From positions 1 through 56,213 of IMG/VR virus record IMGVR_UViG_3300044980_000094: 56,213 nucleotides of DNA. The stretch is one strand, 5' to 3'. Positions 757-55,337 of this stretch are shown in pieces. The DNA is from a virus. Its lineage: Duplodnaviria; Caudoviricetes. The translations under genes and the position numbers were made by a program. The notes beneath the pieces were generated by a model that worked only from the letters and a program-made list of their open reading frames with translations, was not told the DNA's origin and ran no database searches. Within the stretch, counting starts at the first letter, position 1. The number at the start of each line of letters is the position of its first letter.

Positions 757-1035
757 ATGTGGCCTAATCCAATGACCAACCACAAGCCTGCCAGTCCGAC
801 CAAAATTCTTTTTTGCGAGACTTACGAGCGGCATTTGCGCCGCTTATGGGCTTGGACTCGGGATGCCAACAAACTAGCCGAGTTCATGCGCAGCGTTGAG
901 CAGACTCTAGACGGCGGCAATACCTGGAGTCGCAGCGGTGAAGCTTATGACGCCACACTGGCCGAATTGGGCCTCCCCAAAAAGACAAGTCTCAAAGCCC
1001 TGCAATCGATGCCAGTTGGGGAGCCTGCTCAATGA
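757..1035 (+). CDS. Hypothetical protein (start may be 772)
   Basis: ORF, ATGA overlap with next gene. Confidence 0.7.
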   Translation: MWPNPMTNHKPASPTKILFCETYERHLRRLWAWTRDANKLAEFMRSVEQTLDGGNTWSRSGEAYDATLAELGLPKKTSLKALQSMPVGEPAQ

Positions 1036-1430
1036 CCAAATCCCTCAAACTCGCCCGCCCGCCCGGCCCCTTCCTGGTCCTAGTCCTCGACCCCGACGGC
1101 CGTCTGGCAATCCAAGGCGCCAACGGCAAGTCGATTCCGCTTCGCGACTTCAACCCGCGCCAGACCCTCGAGGCACGGCTTGCCAGCCAAGCCCAGACCG
1201 CCAAGACCATATCGGCCATAGCAGCCCAGGCTCCCCAGCCAAAGGCTCCAGCCCCCAAGCCAAAGCCCCTAGCCAAGACCGCGCCGCCACTGACCTCTTG
1301 GCGTAGCCTGGGCGGCGGGATACAGGTAAGGCAAATTCCCCCAGGGCTGTCCGGAAAGCAATTCGCGGCCCTGATGCCAGCGGCAATGCCGCTGCCCATG
1401 CCAGTTAACTCCTCCCAGATTGACTTCTAA
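1032..1430 (+). CDS. Hypothetical protein ending in QIDF
   Basis: Coupled start; Ala/Pro/Lys linker; C-terminal IDF. Confidence 0.7.
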   Translation: MTKSLKLARPPGPFLVLVLDPDGRLAIQGANGKSIPLRDFNPRQTLEARLASQAQTAKTISAIAAQAPQPKAPAPKPKPLAKTAPPLTSWRSLGGGIQVRQIPPGLSGKQFAALMPAAMPLPMPVNSSQIDF

Positions 1431-5350: not shown

Positions 5351-5890
5351 ATGGCAAGCGCAGTTGAACTGGCTTATGGAATTTTGTGGCGGATTGTGAC
5401 TAGCGACAAGCAGATACATCTGGCGAGGAAATTACTTCTCGACGGCCTCGGCAAGGACGGCCAGCGGCGAGGGATAGAGGCGGCGATTGAGCAACTCGGA
5501 CTGGTCGGCCACGACGACGGCGCCTCTGTGTCCGACCCCTACACCCGCGCCGCCCGCGACGTGATCGCCGAGCGCCTGCGCCAGATTAGCGAGGAGGGCT
5601 TTACCCCAGAGTATGATGATCTATACAAGAATGGCAGTCTTGCCTTAGCTGCGGCCTGCTATGCGATCGCCTCAGATTGCGACGACAAAGAAAGAAAATC
5701 CCTCGATCCCTCCTGTGTCTTCTGGAGCACAACCGATGCAGCGTTTGTTTGGCAAAAAATGTGGCCTTTTCCTATCGGCTGGTGGAAGCCCAAGGATCGT
5801 CGTCGCGATCTCGTCCGCGCCGGCGCGCTGATCCTCGCCGAGATCGAGCGCCTTGATCGCGCAAGCGCAGGGAGTAATGAACATGGTTGA
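5351..5890 (+). CDS. Conserved phage hypothetical protein
   Basis: AARDVIAERLRQ..EG..PE.DD...LALAAACYA...WP...WWKP...RRDLVRAGALILAEIERLDR, a widespread phage domain. Confidence 0.8.
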   Translation: MASAVELAYGILWRIVTSDKQIHLARKLLLDGLGKDGQRRGIEAAIEQLGLVGHDDGASVSDPYTRAARDVIAERLRQISEEGFTPEYDDLYKNGSLALAAACYAIASDCDDKERKSLDPSCVFWSTTDAAFVWQKMWPFPIGWWKPKDRRRDLVRAGALILAEIERLDRASAGSNEHG

Positions 5891-6158
5891 GCATGTCCTC
5901 AAAACAACCATAACGGTATGGGACGCGATCGAGAGCGGCCAGAAGCGTTTCGAGGTTCGCCGAAATGATCGGTTCTTTCAGCAGGGCGATATTGTCGTGC
6001 TGAGGAAATGGGACGCCGAATATCACTGGTATGCCCCAAATGAAGGGCGCAAGTTTACAACTTGCGATCTGAGATTCAGGATCGGCTGGATGCTCCAAGG
6101 CGGTCAATTCGGGGTTGAACCCGGATACGTCGTGTTTCAACTGGAGCCGGCGCCATGA
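5877..6158 (+). CDS. DUF3850 / ASCH-PUA-like protein
   Basis: H.LK....WDAI.SG.K.FEVR.NDR.FQ.GD...L...PGYVV. Confidence 0.85.
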   Translation: MNMVEHVLKTTITVWDAIESGQKRFEVRRNDRFFQQGDIVVLRKWDAEYHWYAPNEGRKFTTCDLRFRIGWMLQGGQFGVEPGYVVFQLEPAP

Positions 6159-6832
6159 CCCCCAACCCCACAAGCCCGACGACACTGGTGGATGAGTTCG
6201 AGCGTCTTTTGAAGCACTATGCTGATGGTTGCGTTCTCGCGATGTCGGAACACCGCCATATTATTTCAACCGACTTTGACGCGCGAAAGAAGGCTGTGAT
6301 TAATGCTTACCTCGCCGCGCTGCACCGCTCCCACGCCGCGAGCGGGGAATACGCGCGGGGGCTTCGTGATGCGGCCCAAGTGGCATTGGAGCCAAGAGGG
6401 CGCCCGACGCCGGGCGCCTGCTCTTGCGTCGAGCAGGAGGCAATCGCCGATGAATTGGACCGAGTCAGGGACGCGATCTTCGATGTGTTCTGCCCCAGCA
6501 TAAGATGGTCCCTAGAAGATGCGGAATTGTATTACTGGGCTGCAAAAGCTGCAATCGCTGTGATGAATCCCTTCCCCTCCCCCCGAATCGCCGCCCTCGA
6601 AGCGGAGAACGTGGAGTTGAGGACGCATCTTGTTCTCGACGCGCAAGCCCTAAAGCCATTCGCCGATGCGGTTTACAATGACAACGGTGACATGACCGTT
6701 GGGCCGGTGCTGGACAATTATGAAAGCTGCTGTCGGGCTTATAGCGCCGAGAAACGACTCCGCGCTTACTTCGCCAAACATCCGCTCGCCGAAGGGCAGT
6801 CGGCGACGGTGCGGGAGGATAGGGAATGCTGA
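6155..6832 (+). CDS. Hypothetical (mosaic) phage protein
   Basis: Coupled ORF in early cluster. Confidence 0.65.
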   Translation: MTPNPTSPTTLVDEFERLLKHYADGCVLAMSEHRHIISTDFDARKKAVINAYLAALHRSHAASGEYARGLRDAAQVALEPRGRPTPGACSCVEQEAIADELDRVRDAIFDVFCPSIRWSLEDAELYYWAAKAAIAVMNPFPSPRIAALEAENVELRTHLVLDAQALKPFADAVYNDNGDMTVGPVLDNYESCCRAYSAEKRLRAYFAKHPLAEGQSATVREDREC

Positions 6833-7269
6833 CCATCGCAGACTTTCAACGCGAGTCGAACCGCATCGAAGGCATTCCGCACGTTCGCAAGGGCGAGATT
6901 GAGGCGCTGGAAACCTTCCTACGATGTGATCCGGTGTGCGTCGCTGATCTCCAAGCCTACGTTAAGGTCGTCCAGCCGAACGCTGTCTTGCGGGCGACGC
7001 CGGACGTTCCGGGAGTTCGTGTCGGCCGTCACATTGCGCCGCCATCAGGGCCACAAATCGTCGCCGACCTGGAGCGGATTCTTGGCGCGGCAAACAGCGG
7101 GGCGCTGAGCGCCTACGCCGTGCATTGCCTCTACGAAACCCTGCACCCGTTCACCGACGGCAACGGGCGCTCTGGGCGGGCACTATGGCTCTGGATGCGC
7201 GGGGGCTACGCGCCGCTGGGCTTTCTGCATCAATGGTATTATGAGACGCTAGAGCGGCGTGCACAGTAG
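6826..7269 (+). CDS. fic: Fic-domain protein (putative AMP transferase)
   Basis: Canonical HPFTDGNGRSGR motif; N-terminal SNRIEG inhibitory-helix motif. Confidence 0.92.
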   Translation: MLTIADFQRESNRIEGIPHVRKGEIEALETFLRCDPVCVADLQAYVKVVQPNAVLRATPDVPGVRVGRHIAPPSGPQIVADLERILGAANSGALSAYAVHCLYETLHPFTDGNGRSGRALWLWMRGGYAPLGFLHQWYYETLERRAQ

Positions 7270-9562: not shown

Positions 9563-10063
9563 ATGCCCCGCACAATGCCCCTTACGATCTCATTCTACGA
9601 GTTCTCAATCTCAAAACCCTACCACGAGGGCTTTGCGATCTCGCAGGCCGAGGCGCAGATATTGAACACCGCAAAGCGAGACGCCCTGGCGGCCCAAGGG
9701 GCCAAAGAACTGGCCAAAATGCGCCCTCAGGGCGAGCAGGGGCTGTTGAGCAGCCAACAGCTTGAGGCCCTGACACTTTTGATTGCGGACCTGGACATGC
9801 AATTCGCATTCAAATTGCGTCCAAATCCGCGCCCGCGCAGTGGGACACTGAATCAGGAAATCCAACTCGTGGCTATGGAACGCGTCGAGGCCGAGGCGAG
9901 GAAATTAGGGCTTAAGCTCAGCTCGCAGCAGTTCGAGGCCGCAGTGCAGGAATGGCGCGCCGATGGGGCGATCATTGGCGAGGCTAGGAGGAGATTCGAG
10001 GAAAGGCTCAAAATCAACACCATGCCTTTGAGTGAACTCTTTGGAGAGCAGCCCGGTGGCTGA
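9563..10063 (+). CDS. Hypothetical protein
   Basis: First ORF after promoter; helical composition. Confidence 0.7.
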   Translation: MPRTMPLTISFYEFSISKPYHEGFAISQAEAQILNTAKRDALAAQGAKELAKMRPQGEQGLLSSQQLEALTLLIADLDMQFAFKLRPNPRPRSGTLNQEIQLVAMERVEAEARKLGLKLSSQQFEAAVQEWRADGAIIGEARRRFEERLKINTMPLSELFGEQPGG

Positions 10064-10373
10064 GGCTAGCCAACAGGGCATGGGTATGGCCCTGGTGGCC
10101 CTGGCGGCCCCAGAGGCCAACTCCTGGCCTCTGCTCACCGACGATGACTTCATGGGGCTGCTTTGGCAGGCCCTCGGGAGCCCCTATGGGCTGCTAGTCC
10201 AAGCCAGCAACCCCGATGCATTCCGCCAGCGCTGCTACGTCCTGCGACGCAACAGCCTAGACGAAAGGCTCAAGGACTTGACATTTCGCGGCAGCCCATT
10301 TACTAGCGGTAATCTTTGCATTGTCAAACAATCTGCCATGATGCCAAAGAGCGAGACCAAAAAGCATGTCTAA
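10056..10373 (+). CDS. Hypothetical protein (start uncertain)
   Basis: GGAG then GTG; overlaps neighbours. Confidence 0.65.
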   Translation: MAEASQQGMGMALVALAAPEANSWPLLTDDDFMGLLWQALGSPYGLLVQASNPDAFRQRCYVLRRNSLDERLKDLTFRGSPFTSGNLCIVKQSAMMPKSETKKHV

Positions 10374-10635
10374 GCGAACCGAGAAGCCAACTGTCGCCAG
10401 GCATTTGAAACTCTATGAAGAGGACTGGCTGTTTCTGTGTGAGCATTATGGGCCAGATAGTCCGACCAAATACGGCCCAGGGGCTGTGGTAAGAGAATTG
10501 CTCCATGCGCGGATTAAGGCCATTAAGGCGACAATGACTCGGGCCGTTGAGCACTCACAGGTCGAGGACCAAGCCCAAGTGAGCGAGCAACTGATTGCCA
10601 AGATGGAAGCCCAGGCACGGGGGCAGCAGCCATGA
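10366..10635 (+). CDS. Hypothetical protein, possibly ribbon-helix-helix-like
   Basis: Basic beta-strand followed by two helices; assignment weak. Confidence 0.6.
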   Translation: MSKRTEKPTVARHLKLYEEDWLFLCEHYGPDSPTKYGPGAVVRELLHARIKAIKATMTRAVEHSQVEDQAQVSEQLIAKMEAQARGQQP

Positions 10636-10904
10636 GCGACCTAAAGGGCCAAATTCCCCAGTCGAATGCACTTAGCGAGGCCACTCCAGAGTCACTAAGT
10701 GAACTATTTGCGACTAACCCAGAGCAACTCGATCCAAGGACCGAGGCTGGAGCAGTGAGACTAAAACGCATGGTCGAGGCCCTGAGGAAAATGTATGGGG
10801 CCTGGGCGCTGAGCGAGCAACAGGCCAAGCTGCCCAAGGCCAAGGCCAAGCCACCAGCTGCGAAACTCAGCGCCCCCGTCAGCAGTGAAGGGCTGGACTT
10901 CTAA
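10632..10904 (+). CDS. Hypothetical protein ending in GLDF
   Basis: Coupled at both ends; Lys/Ala/Pro linker; C-terminal LDF. Confidence 0.72.
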   Translation: MSDLKGQIPQSNALSEATPESLSELFATNPEQLDPRTEAGAVRLKRMVEALRKMYGAWALSEQQAKLPKAKAKPPAAKLSAPVSSEGLDF

Positions 10905-11884: not shown

Positions 11885-11909
11885 GCCTTTACTCGAGGAG
11901 CCCAGCCCA

Positions 11910-12791
11910 ATGCCAACCTTTGAGACCTATTCGGAATCTCCCAGCCCAATCAAGATGATCTATATGGGCCACAGCGGAGCTGGCAAGACTGGCTCCTTAG
12001 CCAGCCTGGCCGCTACAGGATATAATGTCAGGATTCTTAATCTGGAGAAAGGAATCGAGATCCTAGCCGGATATGCCCGCGATCCTCGGAGTCCGTATCT
12101 GAAGGCCAACCCTGGGCATTGGAGCGCAGAGCAAGCCAAGGGCTTGGCCGGACGGATTTCCTACGTGACCATCGATGAGCCTGTGCATGTTATTAAGAGC
12201 CCCAAAGGGGCGGAACTGATTCCCAAGGGCGAAATGTGGGGCAAAGTTAGCGAGCAATTGAATGACTGGAAAGACGGCGCCAGCAGTTTGGGCAACATCG
12301 ACACCTGGACCGGCAATGACGTGTTAGTCATTGATTCATTGACCCGGCTCTCGCAGGCAGCGTTTAATTTCCAGCTCAAACTTGGCGGCAGGCTTAACGG
12401 CAGGCCAGAGCAGGCCGACTACGGGCTGGCTCAAAGGAGCCTATTAAGGCTCTTGGAATTATTCTATTCCGACAGTGTGAAGTGCAACATTGTTATTATC
12501 TGTCATATCAAATATATCGAAACCGAGGCAGGACCAACGCGGGGCTTCCCGGAGACAATCGGGAATGCCATTAGCCCTAAGGTCGGGCAGTATTTCAACC
12601 ATGCCCTGCTGGCCAAGTCCTCCGGCAGCGGTGAGGCGACTAAGAGAGTCATTTTGACCAATACCTCTGGGATGATCGAGCTGAAATCCGCAGCGCCATT
12701 GCAGGTCAAGGCGGAATATGACCTGAGCACGGGATTAGCTGATTATTTTAGAGATGTAAAGGGGGGCTATCCGAATCGTGCGAGGGAATAG
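11910..12791 (+). CDS. AAA-family ATPase, Sak4-like recombinase
   Basis: GHSGAGKT Walker A, VLVIDSLT Walker B, IICH; located between exonuclease and SSB-like gene. Confidence 0.85.
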   Translation: MPTFETYSESPSPIKMIYMGHSGAGKTGSLASLAATGYNVRILNLEKGIEILAGYARDPRSPYLKANPGHWSAEQAKGLAGRISYVTIDEPVHVIKSPKGAELIPKGEMWGKVSEQLNDWKDGASSLGNIDTWTGNDVLVIDSLTRLSQAAFNFQLKLGGRLNGRPEQADYGLAQRSLLRLLELFYSDSVKCNIVIICHIKYIETEAGPTRGFPETIGNAISPKVGQYFNHALLAKSSGSGEATKRVILTNTSGMIELKSAAPLQVKAEYDLSTGLADYFRDVKGGYPNRARE

Positions 12792-12817
12792 ACTTTTAAC
12801 CTAAGAGGAGCACCAAC

Positions 12818-13012
12818 ATGACCAAGAACATACAGCAGCTCAAGGCGATTGATCTAGGAGCACTCCAGAACACCTTAGCAACAGCCAAGCGGACTTTGGC
12901 CTCTGATGCCAAGACCTTGGCTAAGGCCCAAGATGCGTTTGATCGATCTCGGACAGCGTTCGCCTCCGCCCATGAGGCTCTCAAGTCAGCATCGCGGACG
13001 ATCTTGGATTGA
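12818..13012 (+). CDS. Small coiled-coil protein
   Basis: GAGGAG RBS. Confidence 0.7.
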   Translation: MTKNIQQLKAIDLGALQNTLATAKRTLASDAKTLAKAQDAFDRSRTAFASAHEALKSASRTILD

Positions 13013-13024
13013 GGAGTCCAGAAC

Positions 13025-13225
13025 ATGAAACGCCAATCGAAGGCCGAGGAGGCCCTGAGCAAACAGGTCAAATCAATCACGATTCAGCTCACCGATCATG
13101 ATCGCCAGATTGCCATGTTAACGGCCCAAAAGGCGACCCTATTTCGACTCAAGGACGAGATCGAAATTGAAATCGAGCGCCTCAAGCAGGAGCGGCTGCA
13201 TGCCAGCGAGACGAGGAAGCCATGA
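13025..13225 (+). CDS. Small coiled-coil protein
   Basis: GAGGAG RBS. Confidence 0.7.
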   Translation: MKRQSKAEEALSKQVKSITIQLTDHDRQIAMLTAQKATLFRLKDEIEIEIERLKQERLHASETRKP

Positions 13226-13392
13226 TCGAGGCCCTGATGGTAGTCGGTCTGCTACTCACCAGTTCGGTCGCGTATTTCTATTGGCGAGCGTGGCGCCGAG
13301 CCGAGCAGCAGCTCGCAGCTTACGAACATGAGCAAATGGGGATATTCGCTCTATCCGATGCTGGCCGATTATCACGACCTCCAGCATTATAA
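13222..13392 (+). CDS. Small membrane-anchored protein (56 aa, not in ORF track)
   Basis: ATGA coupling; MIEALMVVGLLLTSSVAYFYW TM segment. Confidence 0.55.
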   Translation: MIEALMVVGLLLTSSVAYFYWRAWRRAEQQLAAYEHEQMGIFALSDAGRLSRPPAL

Positions 13393-13398
13393 TTGAGG

Positions 13399-13513
13399 AA
13401 TTGGGCACCCACAGGCCCAATTGCGTAGTTGTGAGCCCGTTCGCGGGAGCGGCAGCATAGGTCAAGATCGGCCCTTGATGCTAATCCGCAATCGAACTCT
13501 CACTTTCCGCAAC
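13399..13513 (+). ncRNA. Candidate structured RNA / 5' leader of SSB-like gene
   Basis: Nested stems TTGCG/CGCAA, GTGAG/CTCAC, CCCG-TTCG-CGGG, GCGG/CCGC, AGCA/TGCT, TCAAG/CTTGA; TATAAT at 13388-13393. Confidence 0.4.
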
Positions 13514-14255: not shown

Positions 14256-15767
14256 ATGCCAATCCAAAATACATATCAGCGCGTTCCTCTTGAACAAATC
14301 GCCATTGCGCGAGATGCGCGGCAGAGGCGAGACATTGCCCTGGACGCGAACTTTGTCGGTTCGATCAAGAGGCATGGTGTGCTGGTGCCGATAATTGTGG
14401 GGCCAAATAGCGAGGCAGCAATCAGCAGTAGCGCGGGCGTGGTCCTGCCGTGGCTGCTGATTGCTGGCGAGCGCAGGCTCGAGGCCTCGCGTCAATGTGG
14501 CTTTGCGGACATTCCTGTGCGATTCGCCTCGGAATTGACTCTAGTCGAGCGCCAGCTCTTCGAGCTCGAGGAAAACGTCAAGAGACGCGAACTGCGCTGG
14601 CAGGATGTTTGCCTCTCTGTGGCTAGGATCCATTCCCTACAGCGAGGGCTGGACCCCGACTGGCAGCGAGCCCAGACCGCCGAGTTTTGCGCCATTGATC
14701 CCAGCGCAGTCACGCATTATCTGACAATCTTCGAGGCTTGGGACGACCCGTCCGTCCAAGCCGCTGGGACATATCGGGAGGCATACAATCTGCTGCTGCG
14801 CCGAACCCAACGAGCACAAGGAGTGGCGTTGCAAGAATTGCTGGACTGGACCGAGCCCCAGCAACAGCCAGCCAGCAACAGCCAGCCAGTAGCGATGCCA
14901 GCAGCAATGGCCAGCAGCGAAGCCGCTTCGACAGAAGCACCAGTCGAGAGTGGATTACCAAGAACTGCGACCGGCCCTAGTCCCAGCCCTACTGCCACTG
15001 CTCCCAGCTCCCCGATTCTCTGCCTCGACGCCGTTGAGTGGATGAAGACATACAGTGGCCCCAAATTCAATCTTCTCCACTGCGACTTCCCTTATGGAAT
15101 CGGCCTGTTCAATTCCAACGGAATCCGCTCTGGTCCACAAAGGAGCCAAATGGGCCGAGATTCTTCCTCCAGCGAAGGTTACGAGGACGAGCCAGAGTAT
15201 TTCCAACTCCTTGTCGAAACCCTGGCAGCGAATCTTAATCGATTCTTTTCAATTCAGGGCCATATCATGTTCTGGTTCTCGAACAAATGGGAGATCGAGG
15301 CACGGGTGCGTGCCAAGTTTGCCGAGTTGGCCCCGAGCATTTCGTGGAGTCGATTTCCACTGATCTGGCTCAAATCTGATAACGCTGGAATAGCCGCGAG
15401 TCCGCAATATGAGCCGAGACATATTTACGAGACCTGCCTGCTGGGCTCGCAAGGCAAAAGGCCGATTGTGCGGATCGTCAGCGATGCATACAGCGCGCCA
15501 ACGGACAAGTCCATCCATGTGAGCGCCAAACCGGAGCCGATGCTAAGGCATTTCATGACGATGCTAGTTGACGAGTCCACCTCGCTGCTCGATCCAACCT
15601 GCGGCAGCGGAACGGCCCTTCGAGCAGCGGAATCCTTGGGCGCTTCTCGCATCTTGGGCTTGGAGAAAGACCCCCAGATGGCCGAACAGGCACGACGGGC
15701 ACTCGAACTTGAGCGCGCAAAGCGCCGGGCTGCGAAGACCCTCCGATCGGCCCCGCTGGATTTCTAG
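14256..15767 (+). CDS. ParB-N domain / N6-N4 DNA methyltransferase fusion, ends in PLDF
   Basis: SIK.HG...PI.V...LIAGERRL.A, ELEEN.KR; HCDFPY (DPPY-like), H..AKP, LLDPTCGSGT. Confidence 0.85.
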   Translation: MPIQNTYQRVPLEQIAIARDARQRRDIALDANFVGSIKRHGVLVPIIVGPNSEAAISSSAGVVLPWLLIAGERRLEASRQCGFADIPVRFASELTLVERQLFELEENVKRRELRWQDVCLSVARIHSLQRGLDPDWQRAQTAEFCAIDPSAVTHYLTIFEAWDDPSVQAAGTYREAYNLLLRRTQRAQGVALQELLDWTEPQQQPASNSQPVAMPAAMASSEAASTEAPVESGLPRTATGPSPSPTATAPSSPILCLDAVEWMKTYSGPKFNLLHCDFPYGIGLFNSNGIRSGPQRSQMGRDSSSSEGYEDEPEYFQLLVETLAANLNRFFSIQGHIMFWFSNKWEIEARVRAKFAELAPSISWSRFPLIWLKSDNAGIAASPQYEPRHIYETCLLGSQGKRPIVRIVSDAYSAPTDKSIHVSAKPEPMLRHFMTMLVDESTSLLDPTCGSGTALRAAESLGASRILGLEKDPQMAEQARRALELERAKRRAAKTLRSAPLDF

Positions 15768-15769
15768 CC

Positions 15770-16495
15770 ATGCCAGCAGGCTCCATCGTAGCCCTATTCG
15801 ACATGACTGGATATTCGGTCCGCGATTGGGCACTCGTAGGCGAGACCTGTTATTGTCTCGATATGTATAACGACGGCAGACAGGAGCAATTCCCATCCGG
15901 TGGCTCAATTACATACCTATATTGGGAGGCCTTGGACCCAACGGCCCTAGGCCAGATCGCAGCCCTCAAACCCAAGTTCCTGTTCGCATTCCCGCCTTGC
16001 ACGGACTTGGCCGTGAGCGGTGCTGCACATTTTGAGTCCAAACGAGCAGAGAATCCGAGCTTCCAAGACGAGGCCCTCTATTTGGCTTTAATTGCGCCGA
16101 GCCTCGGCAAGCGTCTGGGGATTCCGTGGTTTGTGGAGAACCCAGTCGGGACGCTCTCCACCCTATGGGGCAAACCGGATCATATTTTTGAGCCTTGGGA
16201 GTTCGGAGGCTACCTGCCAGCCAGCGACACGCATCCAAAATGGCCAGAATACATCGAGGCCCGCGATGCGTATCCCAAGACGACCTGCATTTGGAGCGGA
16301 AATGGTCTCAAATGGCCCGAGCGCAGACCAGTAGAGCAGACCTGCATAGTGAGCAAGAATGGAAAGAAATGGAGTAAACAACAGGCCAATCTCGGGGGCA
16401 AGAGTTTGAGGACGAAACAGATCCGCTCAGCGACTCCGAGGGGATTCGCAAGGGCGATTTTCGAGGCCAACTATGCCAGCCAGCAGCCAAGATGA
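15770..16495 (+). CDS. Phage C5-cytosine DNA methyltransferase-like protein
   Basis: LFD.TG, FAFPPCTDLAVSGA, VENPV, Y.K.TC.W, RS.TP.GFA. Confidence 0.82.
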   Translation: MPAGSIVALFDMTGYSVRDWALVGETCYCLDMYNDGRQEQFPSGGSITYLYWEALDPTALGQIAALKPKFLFAFPPCTDLAVSGAAHFESKRAENPSFQDEALYLALIAPSLGKRLGIPWFVENPVGTLSTLWGKPDHIFEPWEFGGYLPASDTHPKWPEYIEARDAYPKTTCIWSGNGLKWPERRPVEQTCIVSKNGKKWSKQQANLGGKSLRTKQIRSATPRGFARAIFEANYASQQPR

Positions 16496-16551
16496 CCGTG
16501 ACAGCCAGCAACCCAACCTTCGCCCTGCGCGGCCAAGCGATGGACTTCTGA
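16492..16551 (+). CDS. 19-aa micro-ORF MTVTASNPTFALRGQAMDF
   Basis: ATGA overlap with methylase stop, TGATG overlap with UDG start; ends in MDF. Confidence 0.45.
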   Translation: MTVTASNPTFALRGQAMDF

Positions 16552-23852: not shown

Positions 23853-25235
23853 TTATTGCCCAACTGGCACAAGGCCCTTTTCAGGATCCCAGCGATGAGT
23901 AACTCCCGGTGCAGTCCCAGCCTGCGGAACCCCCTTGACTCCTTCGCCAGAAATCTCCGTTGTGGGACTCCAGTTCTTCATGAAATCCGAATGGCTCCAT
24001 TGACTCGGCCATCGAGTCATGTCGCCACCCTTAGCCTTATATTGGTCGATGGCGTCTTGCTCATGCAGGTCTTTATCGTAAAAGTTATTCCACAAATTGA
24101 AGACCTTAACCATGGCCCTCGGATCGGTGGTCAGATTGGGATTCTTCTGCAAATAGGCCACAAACTCCTGCGCATTCATACGGCTGCCGCCGACGCCAGT
24201 GAGCTGTTGCTTGAGCTGGGACATAGAGGTCCCGAGGGAAATCTTGTCGATCTCTTGGCTAGCAGCCTGAGAACCATTAGCCCATTTATCCACCGTGTCG
24301 TTGTTGACGCCCACAGCCTGAAGCAGCGAGCCCAATCGGCTATATGTATCGGCGCCGCCGCCCATCTGAGCACTATGCGCCGCGTCGATGATCGCTCGCA
24401 TATTTTTGCTCAAATCCTGGCCGCTCAAAACCCGATCATCGAGGTTCTTTTCGTAGTCGGCCACATCAGCAATACGGTGCTCAGCGTAGCCTTTTTGGCC
24501 GACGCTGAGACCCTGTGGGCCAGAGGCAGTTGTCGAGTCAGCAGGACCACCTTGAATGCCGCCCAGCGTAACCGGAGCAGGAGCACCACCGGGTCCGACC
24601 GGCTGATATTCTGTAGTGGGTTTCATCACCCCAGCGGCACCATACATAGTCTCAGCCGGGATGCCAGAACCTGCCCCCAGCGCAATGATGTTCTTTTGCA
24701 ATTGGGCACTCGCAGCAGCCTTGGCCTCCGGGGGAGCGTCCGGGTCAGTTGGGACCCCAGCAGTCAATGCGGGCAAGATATACTGCAGGGCCTGGCCCGC
24801 ACGAGCTTGGGCTTGCGGACTGAGCAGTTTCAGTCTCCCTTGAATATTCGGCAGCAACTGGCTCACGTCTCCAGCACTTGAGGCCGCGCTGCCGCCCAAC
24901 ACCGCATCGAGGCCATCTTTGGCACCATGCTGGGCCTCGTTCTCGTATTGCTGTCTTGCCAGCATGGCTTGGCGCCAATTGGCTACAGCCTCACCTCCCC
25001 AAGCGGCCGCAGTCGGGTCTTTGCTCACAGCATCAAGGCCAGATTCCAAATCAGGACTACTGGCAATGATCTGGCCAGCCCGTTGGGTGCCTGCAAACTT
25101 CTGCTGCATCATTGAGGTCTGGGTTTGCAGCATACGCATTTGCATGATTTGGCTCATGGCGCCGAGCGGATTGCCACCAAAGAGGCCAGAATTATTGGGC
25201 TGGGCAACGTTGAGATCAAGATCAGGTCCGGGCAT
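23853..25235 (-). CDS. DNA ejection protein (P22 gp20 position)
   Basis: Gln/Ala/Gly-rich helical protein; synteny. Confidence 0.7.
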   Translation of the reverse strand: MPGPDLDLNVAQPNNSGLFGGNPLGAMSQIMQMRMLQTQTSMMQQKFAGTQRAGQIIASSPDLESGLDAVSKDPTAAAWGGEAVANWRQAMLARQQYENEAQHGAKDGLDAVLGGSAASSAGDVSQLLPNIQGRLKLLSPQAQARAGQALQYILPALTAGVPTDPDAPPEAKAAASAQLQKNIIALGAGSGIPAETMYGAAGVMKPTTEYQPVGPGGAPAPVTLGGIQGGPADSTTASGPQGLSVGQKGYAEHRIADVADYEKNLDDRVLSGQDLSKNMRAIIDAAHSAQMGGGADTYSRLGSLLQAVGVNNDTVDKWANGSQAASQEIDKISLGTSMSQLKQQLTGVGGSRMNAQEFVAYLQKNPNLTTDPRAMVKVFNLWNNFYDKDLHEQDAIDQYKAKGGDMTRWPSQWSHSDFMKNWSPTTEISGEGVKGVPQAGTAPGVTHRWDPEKGLVPVGQ

Positions 25236-25888
25236 CAGTTGATACTCCTAGATGGACTAGAGGCAGACATGAGCGGATTGGGAGAGGCAGTTGGACTGGC
25301 GCCAACTGGGCCACCAGCTAGACCGCTCCCCTGCCCCTTTGCCCTCATGTCGTCAATCCGATCAGCCAGCAGCATGTGCATCCCAGCCACTCCCATATGA
25401 TGAGCCGCAAGGGCCTGCATTGGGATCAACTGCTGTTCCTGTTGCTTGAGCATTTGATCTTTTTCCATAAGCCACGAGGCCAAAGCTTGGCCCCCTTGGG
25501 GCATAGCGGATTGGCCGCCTTGGGGATTCCCCGCGATCAGGGCCATAATCTGCTTCGGGTCTCCGCCCTCGGCAATGATTTTTCCCGCGCCTTTGAGCAC
25601 GTCTTCAATCGTGGCCGAGTCGCCAAGCTTGGTGAGCGCATCGAGTTCGCTTCGGGCAATTCCAAGCATCTCGGCGGCGTTGGACACCTGATCAAAATGA
25701 GCCTTAGCAGCATCAGCGTGCTGTTGGGTCGGACTGGCAGGAGCGGGGGGATTAGCCCCAGCTGGACTTGCGGGTTTGGGGGCTTGTTCCAAATCCCCCG
25801 CGTCCGGCCCGTTGCCCATCTGGGCGTCGTCGGAATCGCCAGCGCCAATGCCAGGCGGCCGCGGATTAGGTCCAAGCAGCGGGTTCAT
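25235..25888 (-). CDS. Putative internal virion protein
   Basis: Between gp7-like and gp20-like genes; TGATG coupling. Confidence 0.65.
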   Translation of the reverse strand: MNPLLGPNPRPPGIGAGDSDDAQMGNGPDAGDLEQAPKPASPAGANPPAPASPTQQHADAAKAHFDQVSNAAEMLGIARSELDALTKLGDSATIEDVLKGAGKIIAEGGDPKQIMALIAGNPQGGQSAMPQGGQALASWLMEKDQMLKQQEQQLIPMQALAAHHMGVAGMHMLLADRIDDMRAKGQGSGLAGGPVGASPTASPNPLMSASSPSRSIN

Positions 25889-54671: not shown

Positions 54672-55337
54672 TCAGAAATCCACCCCACCCGCCTTGGCAG
54701 CCTGCTCGGCCAACTTCTGGCTTTCTCGCGCCTTACGGTCAAGGGTGGCCTGGGCCGACTTGCGGAGCTCGGCGTCGAACTTGGTCATATAGCCCTCGAT
54801 GAACGAACTCCACGTGCGGGTCGTGCCATTGTCGAGGGTGAAGACATAGTCCGGCTTCGGAAAAGCCGTGCCGTTCTTGCCCCAGGCACCGGTAACGCCA
54901 CTCGCGACCAGCCGCGCCTTGACCTTGTTCCGAGCCTCGAGGGCCATTTCGGCCTCGAGCGGGCTAAGCCTCGGCCCACGCTCGCCGCCATCGCCCAACG
55001 TGCCGGCGAAGATTTCGGCCAAAAACTCGGCCCGGACGGCTTCGCACTTGGCGGCGAACTCAGGGCTCTTCGAGAACTTGTTCTCCCGAAGCCGGGTTCG
55101 GATCGCGTCCTCGGCGGCCTTGCGGGCCTCTTTGACCGGCACTGGGTCCATGGCGTTGATGGCCTCCCGGACGACGTCGCTCGTGACGGCGCTCGAGGTC
55201 TCACTGCCGTGGATATGGGTAGCGCCACGATTGATGAGGGCCACGATCGAGGCCAAGGGGGTGTCGGCGATCTTGAACGCGTTGCCGCCCCAATTCCACG
55301 TGGCCGAGGCGATATTGGTATTGTCGGTATCGGACAT
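54672..55337 (-). CDS. Early protein ending in GVDF
   Basis: GGAG RBS; own promoter; C-terminal VDF. Confidence 0.8.
   Translation of the reverse strand: MSDTDNTNIASATWNWGGNAFKIADTPLASIVALINRGATHIHGSETSSAVTSDVVREAINAMDPVPVKEARKAAEDAIRTRLRENKFSKSPEFAAKCEAVRAEFLAEIFAGTLGDGGERGPRLSPLEAEMALEARNKVKARLVASGVTGAWGKNGTAFPKPDYVFTLDNGTTRTWSSFIEGYMTKFDAELRKSAQATLDRKARESQKLAEQAAKAGGVDF

Follow-up and report, generated by a model that had tools for sequence, protein, structure and literature searches.

A hidden docking motif in the −1 frame of a phage Sak4-like ATPase gene, probably genuine and possibly a young cryptic remnant

The gene for a Sak4-like ATPase in an environmental phage holds, out of frame behind a slippery heptamer, what is probably a genuine copy of a short C-terminal docking motif, judging by its sequence. 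The same motif, [LIV]DF, forms the in-frame C-terminal end of 5 of the 76 predicted proteins of this 56-kb phage. The explanation that we put first, tentatively and with less than even confidence, is that the hidden tail is a lineage-specific, young remnant: a tagged Sak4 would have gone out of frame in a run of seven G (G7), and slippage would now yield the tail at a low level at best. The DNA analysed (the window) comprises an entire virus record, 56,213 bases long and with an estimated completeness of 97%.

Results

The Sak4-like gene and its 3′ end

Early and replication genes occupy the + strand from 1 to 21.6 kb, among them a UvrD-like helicase, a PD-(D/E)XK exonuclease, the Sak4-like AAA_24 ATPase, a ParB-N/methyltransferase fusion, a second methyltransferase, a UDG-like protein, a family A polymerase and a primase; structural genes lie on the − strand. 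The early region also encodes a Fic/DOC-family protein (Pfam E 6.5e-8) and a DUF3850/ASCH-like protein, at 6826-7269 and 5853-6158. The product of gene 11910-12791 matched Pfam AAA_24 (31.5 bits, cut-off 27) and PHROG 124 ('Sak4-like ssDNA annealing protein', E 9.8e-14) and carries a Walker A motif (GHSGAGKTG) and a Walker B motif (VLVIDS), with G25, K26, T27 and D142 invariant in alignment A2. By these signatures it is a Sak4-like/AAA_24 RecA-core ATPase with a predicted annealing function; a PDB profile search found no solved relative.

In frame 0 the gene closes with GTA AAG GGG GGC TAT CCG AAT CGT GCG AGG GAA TAG, giving the protein end VKGGYPNRARE; this C-terminus (..NRARE) is without the docking motif, which occurs in the −1 frame only. 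The heptamer A_AAG_GGG overlaps a G6 run (Table 1), and behind it the −1 frame reads GGLSESCEGIDF-stop. That frame is closed upstream by a TAG (12749-12751), open over 12752-12796 and ended by the TAA at 12797-12799; ATG, GTG and TTG are all absent from the open stretch, so that it could be entered only from the Sak4 frame. The trans-frame part comprises 12 residues ending EGIDF, matching the tails of the five in-frame tagged proteins. An earlier note on this DNA had described the codons, the heptamer, the G6 run and the −1 tail, and our re-reading agreed with it letter for letter. The resemblance it saw to SEGLDF and AGEIDF was borne out by the tails of five real proteins, and the −1 frame does stop just ahead of the next ribosome-binding site, the TAA being followed by AAGAGGAG at 12804-12811.

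Table 1. Positions of the hidden tails, the tagged proteins and neighbouring features in the window
Feature	Position	Strand	Basis or remark
Sak4-like AAA_24 (RecA-core) ATPase gene, 293 aa, frame 0, ending ..FRDVKGGYPNRARE	11910..12791	+	Pfam, PHROG, ORF listing
Slippery heptamer A_AAG_GGG, in frame (Val GTA, Lys AAG, Gly GGG)	12758..12764	+	Sequence reading
G6 homopolymer	12761..12766	+	Sequence reading; one extra G would bring the tail in frame
Frame-0 stop TAG	12789..12791	+	Sequence reading, ORF listing
−1 frame open stretch, 15 codons + TAA, reading RCKGGLSESCEGIDF	12752..12799	+	Tail proper 12767-12796
Shine-Dalgarno AAGAGGAG and next gene (ATG 12818, 64 aa)	12804..13012	+	Sequence reading, ORF listing
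p90, tagged, ending SEGLDF	10632..10904	+	90 aa, just upstream of the exonuclease; conserved tail carrier in the phage group
ParB-N/DNA methyltransferase fusion, tagged ..RSAPLDF	14256..15767	+	Pfam, PHROG, C-terminal reading
Tagged protein ..SSQIDF, no family assigned	1032..1430	+	C-terminal reading
Tagged protein ..AGEIDF, 76 aa	1999..2229	+	C-terminal reading
Tagged protein ..AGGVDF, no family assigned	54672..55337	−	C-terminal reading
Second hidden tail, 19-codon ATG frame ending ..RGQAMDF	16492..16551	+	−1 frame of methylase gene 15770-16495; segment 16378-16551

Pfam searches with E up to 5 gave no significant match for the four tagged proteins other than the ParB-methylase or for four neighbouring proteins, and p90 had no match in the protein atlas. 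The ORF listed at 1795-2229 is probably the 76-aa gene 1999-2229 with a spurious 5′ extension. The N-terminal half of this listed ORF (144 aa) is implausibly rich in Arg, Ser and Cys and overlaps the well-formed ORF 1698-2012. An in-frame A_AAA_AAG_GGG at 1845-1854 was set aside as a further shift site: its frame is only that of the spurious extension, the real genes here being probably 1698-2012 and 1999-2229.

A docking-tail network across the phage group

We compared 160 related loci among the matches listed, the best metagenome match reaching 60%, and counted distinct ORFs of at least 50 aa that end in the group tail motif, [DEST][LIMV][GD][LF]. The motif closed 84 of 8750 distinct ORFs of the relatives (among the matches listed), mostly as ..EDLGL. 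Among these same matches, 29 tagged ORFs were homologues of p90, 7 were homologues of 10032-10373 and 3, all ending ..[SE]LGL, were homologues of the ParB-methylase; 41 had no match to window proteins. The p90 homologues showed 23 distinct ends, again mostly ..EDLGL (among the matches listed), and in their alignment the GLDF of the window stands opposite DLGL. On the evidence of these alignments, [LIV]DF is the local form in the window of the group-wide ..EDLGL tail.

Each genome has one tail type: DLGL, DLDL, LGF or DLDF in the relatives and [LIV]DF in the window. Up to four tagged ORFs, mostly small replication-module proteins, occur per ~20-kb related locus, and five occur across the 56-kb genome of the window. 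As the tail type is uniform within genomes and differs between them, the pattern suggests one co-evolving reader; as only three ParB-methylase homologues among the matches listed carry the tail, its gain and loss appear to be frequent. We regard the tails as real short motifs that form a docking-tail network across the phage group and would dock onto a shared partner. A literature search found no description of an ..EDLGL docking-tail network of phages.

How often such tails arise by chance

Of the 37,634 tripeptides in alternative frames of the window, 9 are [LIVM]DF. The stops of the 76 gene calls are crossed by 152 alternative-frame segments, in which 0.036 hidden [LIVM]DF ends were expected and two were seen, with probabilities of 0.036 for at least one and 0.0006 for at least two. 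The test flagged four rows: two real overlapping tagged genes and two hidden ends, one behind Sak4 and one in segment 16378-16551. A six-frame count found seven stop-to-stop frames ending [LIVM]DF, against a mean of 0.6 and a maximum of 4 in 200 block shuffles. In-frame X_XXY_YYZ heptamers of any kind stand at 32 of 17,297 codon positions of the window, giving an expectation of ~0.02 for the 13 codons where slipping would lead into the Sak4 tail.

The second hidden tail lies behind the PHROG 757 DNA methyltransferase gene. The ATG of its micro-ORF (16492-16551) overlaps the methylase stop (ATGA), and its own stop shares bases with an ATG at 16551 (TGATG), a candidate for the real start codon of the UDG-like gene; alignments of the UDG-like protein with its homologues start at query residues 2-52, and at residue 32 or later in 52 of 58. 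Reading by eye found no in-frame heptamer for segment 16378-16551, and 0 of 58 related ParB-methylase/UDG gaps (among the matches listed) holds a counterpart. The frame may encode a tail micropeptide that is made on its own, or it may be a remnant or have arisen by chance. The methyltransferase gene itself (15770-16495) has a homologue in no related locus among the matches listed. In these relatives the UDG-like gene comes after the ParB-methylase, across gaps of 12-1025 nt and without the PHROG 757 methyltransferase. From this comparison, the gene appears to have been inserted in this lineage alone, at a place where the phages vary.

The G6 run in two assemblies

An independent contig of 28,313 nt (depth 10.8) was identical to the window over 11900-13400, with 0 other letters and 0 gaps. 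This contig comes from one public DNA run, probably the source sample, kept as contigs that show the consensus only; no RNA runs holding the stretch were listed. The earlier note had allowed for a one-base assembly error, and since the independent contig has the same G6 an assembler artefact is unlikely, although both assemblies share a probable source run. A related possibility is that the true or a co-existing sequence is G7, through consensus error or a G6/G7 mixture produced by phase variation or polymerase slippage, in which case Sak4 would simply be a sixth protein tagged in frame, in all genomes or a part of them. Homopolymers are the usual places of indels and miscalls, the depth is only about 11 and rare variants are dropped from contigs, all of which would favour such heterogeneity. 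Against it, G6 stands in both the window and the 28,313-nt contig (probably from one and the same run), frame 0 runs unchanged through GGYP in two relatives of 92% identity on two further contigs, and a run of six G would be short for a contingency locus. The available part of the literature describes bacterial transcriptional slippage for runs of about 9 A or T (PMC5009743), so transcriptional slippage at G6, another suggestion of the earlier note, is unlikely by the known rules. Altogether we consider a G7 or mixed sequence quite improbable.

The shift site and the tail are confined to the window

The tail motif stood in frame at the C-terminus in 0 of 123 Sak4 homologues and in 0 of 148 further Sak4 cluster representatives (0/271 together); past a conserved ..YFRDV[KR]G, the C-termini vary freely. 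At the nucleotide level, 160 loci (among the matches listed), 15 of them unparsed by the motif rule, were reduced to 98 distinct Sak4 3′ ends by collapsing duplicates, and none of the 98 had an alternative-frame [LIVMF][DE]F end behind Sak4. More widely, 14 of 4203 alternative-frame 3′ segments of the relatives' ORFs of at least 120 aa (among the matches listed) ended in the group motif. All 14 proved to be independent genes lying downstream, each with a start codon to itself and a length of at least 81 aa, leaving 0 of 4203 as short hidden tails.

The heptamer A_AAG_GGG was likewise unique to the window, no relative among the matches listed having it at this site. Five relatives with Val-Lys-Gly use GTG or GTC for Val, so that the heptamer is not formed, and the in-frame heptamers of any kind found in 3 of 92 distinct Sak4 3′ parts (among the matches listed) were all other than A_AAG_GGG. 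At the protein level, the nearest relatives (P0001 and P0122, 92%, on two contigs) end ..DVRGGYPK, sharing frame 0 through GGYP and having Arg at the position of the needed P-site Lys, and those at 78% (P0002 and P0123) stop directly after ..DVKG(V). Judged by eye, the GGYPK-stop ending of P0001 could derive from the sequence of the window through a single in-frame deletion of 12 bases, and such a deletion would preserve an ..IDF end in the −1 frame. Single-protein scans of viral and genome contigs found no DNA of close relatives. The comparison of homologous C-termini proposed in the earlier note was thus made and found no tagged protein and no locus with a hidden tail; by these alignments the shift is not conserved among Sak4 homologues.

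Two sets of candidate tails in relatives were rejected. Frames reading 'GPS[LR]GLF-stop' just downstream of Sak4 in clade L025-L077 differ in frame relative to Sak4 and fall on two conserved hairpins that carry compensatory changes, indicating intergenic structure rather than tails; alternative-frame '..GLF' ends inside the Sak4 gene are produced by conserved DYFK codons. The hairpins, two adjacent short ones within the ~60 nt that follow the Sak4 stop, occur in L025, L037, L039, L048, L069, L070, L074, L077 and L042. They show compensatory base changes and precede the ribosome-binding site of the next gene (MAVNFKDLL..). The pair is probably a regulatory or terminator-like element.

Slippage potential of the heptamer

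A_AAG_GGG at 12758-12764 conforms to X_XXY_YYZ in frame 0, with both tRNAs able to re-pair, and from the heptamer onwards the −1 frame stays open up to a C-terminus that is distinct and meaningful. In the available part of one study, A_AA.G_GG.G is among the most efficient −1 motifs in E. coli, giving 'high level frameshifting', and shift-prone motifs as a class, without stimulators, reach 2.1-10 times a background of about 0.055% (PMC4066793). The downstream fold (12758-12850) was weaker than that of shuffles (MFE −11.7 versus a mean of −16.7, z +1.6) in a search with pseudoknots outside its scope; Rfam had no match at the shift site, and reading by eye found no SD-like word 6-17 nt upstream of the heptamer. 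GTA, the codon that completes the heptamer, makes up 8% of the 979 Val codons in the window. The tail itself uses rare codons (ATA 10%, CTA 12%, GGA 15%), and mean log-odds of codon usage were +0.12 for frame 0 (8 codons) versus −0.18 for the −1 frame (10 codons), favouring neither frame clearly. Another in-frame A_AAG_GGG lies inside gene 25235-25888.

Weighing the explanations

Could selection keep the heptamer so that a set fraction of Sak4 receives the tail, giving two isoforms by programmed −1 ribosomal frameshifting, as the earlier note proposed? A perfect heptamer of a kind named among the most efficient in E. coli (PMC4066793, as far as its available text goes) sits within the only 13 codons able to reach the tail; the −1 frame closes shortly ahead of the next ribosome-binding site; and frame 0 is retained through GGYP in the 92% relatives. 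That the heptamer is completed by a rare GTA where five Val-Lys-Gly relatives use GTG or GTC is the one point favouring selection for slipperiness. However, heptamer and hidden tail are unique to the window (0/98 loci and 0/4203 segments among the matches listed), the 92% relatives have Arg for the P-site Lys, no downstream structure, Rfam match or, by eye, SD-like sequence accompanies the site, the tail is written in rare codons, and a further in-frame A_AAG_GGG is tolerated in gene 25235-25888. The shift-prone nature of the heptamer stands as well documented, and a selected shift does not follow from the comparison, which yielded no tagged or tail-hiding homologue; nor was a stimulator found. 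The case for a programmed frameshift is weak, nothing showing the shift to be conserved or programmed, and we consider it possible but unlikely. Slightly more doubtful still is a speculative form of use in which the unstimulated heptamer would dose the docking motif, plugging a set minority of Sak4 into a hub that would also bind p90, the ParB-methylase and the three other tagged proteins. Pure coincidence, in which a 3′ end under no constraint would by accident spell [LIV]DF-stop in its −1 frame beside a chance heptamer, is possible and not favoured. The tail is short, with just three fixed residues; at least one hit in the genome has a probability of 0.036, which is not extreme; the hidden Sak4 tail is shared with no relative among the matches listed and no Sak4 homologue is a tail client; and the frame-0 C-terminus past RDV[KR]G is freely variable among homologues. 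Against coincidence stand a joint estimate of ~1e-4 to 1e-3 for the tail, the in-frame heptamer and the E-G before IDF (compare EGLDF of p90), the presence of two hidden tails in one genome (P 0.0006) and the 0 of 4203 short hidden tails in relatives (among the matches listed). On balance, coincidence too is unlikely.

We infer instead that an ancestral tagged Sak4 suffered a one-base deletion in a G7 run, a mutational hot spot, and so lost its tail. With the genome truly G6, the main Sak4 product would be untagged, at 293 aa, and the tail could now be made only by a ribosome slipping back one base on A_AAG_GGG, with Lys-tRNA re-pairing from AAG to AAA and Gly-tRNA from GGG to GGG. As no stimulator assists the slip, the tagged isoform (296 aa) would be a trace or minor product next to the main one of 293 aa, a case of 'compensatory' low-level frameshifting rather than a conserved programmed shift. 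Since neither conservation nor a stimulator was found, a remnant fits better than a programmed site; the frame break falls exactly within the homopolymer, and the tail's match to real tails and its rarity by chance lend further support. Against a remnant, no tagged Sak4 is known (0/123 and 0/148 homologues), so that the ancestral tagged state is assumed. Because P0001 and P0122 share the frame-0 GGYP, the deletion would predate their split, yet the 36-nt tail is intact, and the rare Val codon GTA (8%) is left unexplained. By rough estimate, chance, a remnant and a programmed shift have likelihoods of similar order, the remnant being the most likely overall.

Discussion

In E. coli dnaX (tau/gamma), T7 gene 10A/10B and lambda G/GT, −1 frameshifts yield two products. 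These systems resemble the Sak4 site in that the ribosome slips by −1 on a heptamer containing a Lys codon, towards the 3′ part of a gene, and in that only a C-terminal interaction region differs between the products. Their sites, however, are conserved in relatives, most with an SD-like or hairpin/pseudoknot stimulator, neither of which was found for Sak4, where the added piece would be just a 10-residue docking motif. Closer to a remnant is herpesvirus thymidine kinase, for which the accessible part of one source describes a 'savior' indel in a G7 run rescued by low-level frameshifting (PMC5009743). There, as would apply to Sak4, a one-base change in a G run puts the C-terminal part out of frame and rare slips give a little full product; in that account, however, the virus is eukaryotic, under drug selection and with a whole enzyme at stake, whereas Sak4 has a short tail and no known selection.

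The network itself has counterparts in hub-and-client systems. The acidic tails of T7 gp2.5 and gp4 end in Phe and bind polymerase, and the β-clamp and T4 gp45 bind C-terminal peptides such as the ..LGL end of Pol IV. In these systems as in the phage group, several replication proteins carry a short hydrophobic C-terminal peptide behind a flexible linker, and such sharing indicates one common receptor. The consensus differs, the phage group having ..[DE][LI]G[LF] or [LIV]DF, and no clamp gene was recognised in the window. For HK620, the available text reports that Sak4 requires the C-terminal hexapeptide (NDYPPF) of its cognate SSB and gives biochemistry of ATP-dependent ssDNA annealing stimulated by the SSB tail for this Sak4 only (PMC5928155). 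The likeness lies in a core-only RecA-like Sak4-type ATPase and a short C-terminal tip whose last residue is Phe (NDYPPF; E. coli SSB has DDDIPF). In the same account the tip sits on SSB with Sak4 as its reader, whereas in the window the tip would sit on Sak4 and the tails are on several non-SSB proteins. 'Healer', a DUF669 SSB plus AAA ATPase recombination module, is similar as a phage middle-gene module pairing an AAA/Sak4-like recombinase with a small partner that binds ssDNA and is flexible at its C-terminus; the available part of its description includes no frameshift (PMC13687109). No window protein tested matched DUF669.

The larger feature is a set of ~55-60-kb environmental phages whose replication-module proteins share one C-terminal peptide that co-varies between genomes. 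If the shift is used, recoding would add a ten-residue docking peptide, rather than a domain, to part of the recombinase pool, a cheap way of tuning how a protein is wired into a hub and of coupling recombination to it; if true, recoding would meter a short linear motif inside the ..EDLGL docking-tail network. If the tail is a remnant, as we tentatively prefer, tail turnover would have been caught in the act, in a network that clients may easily join or leave.
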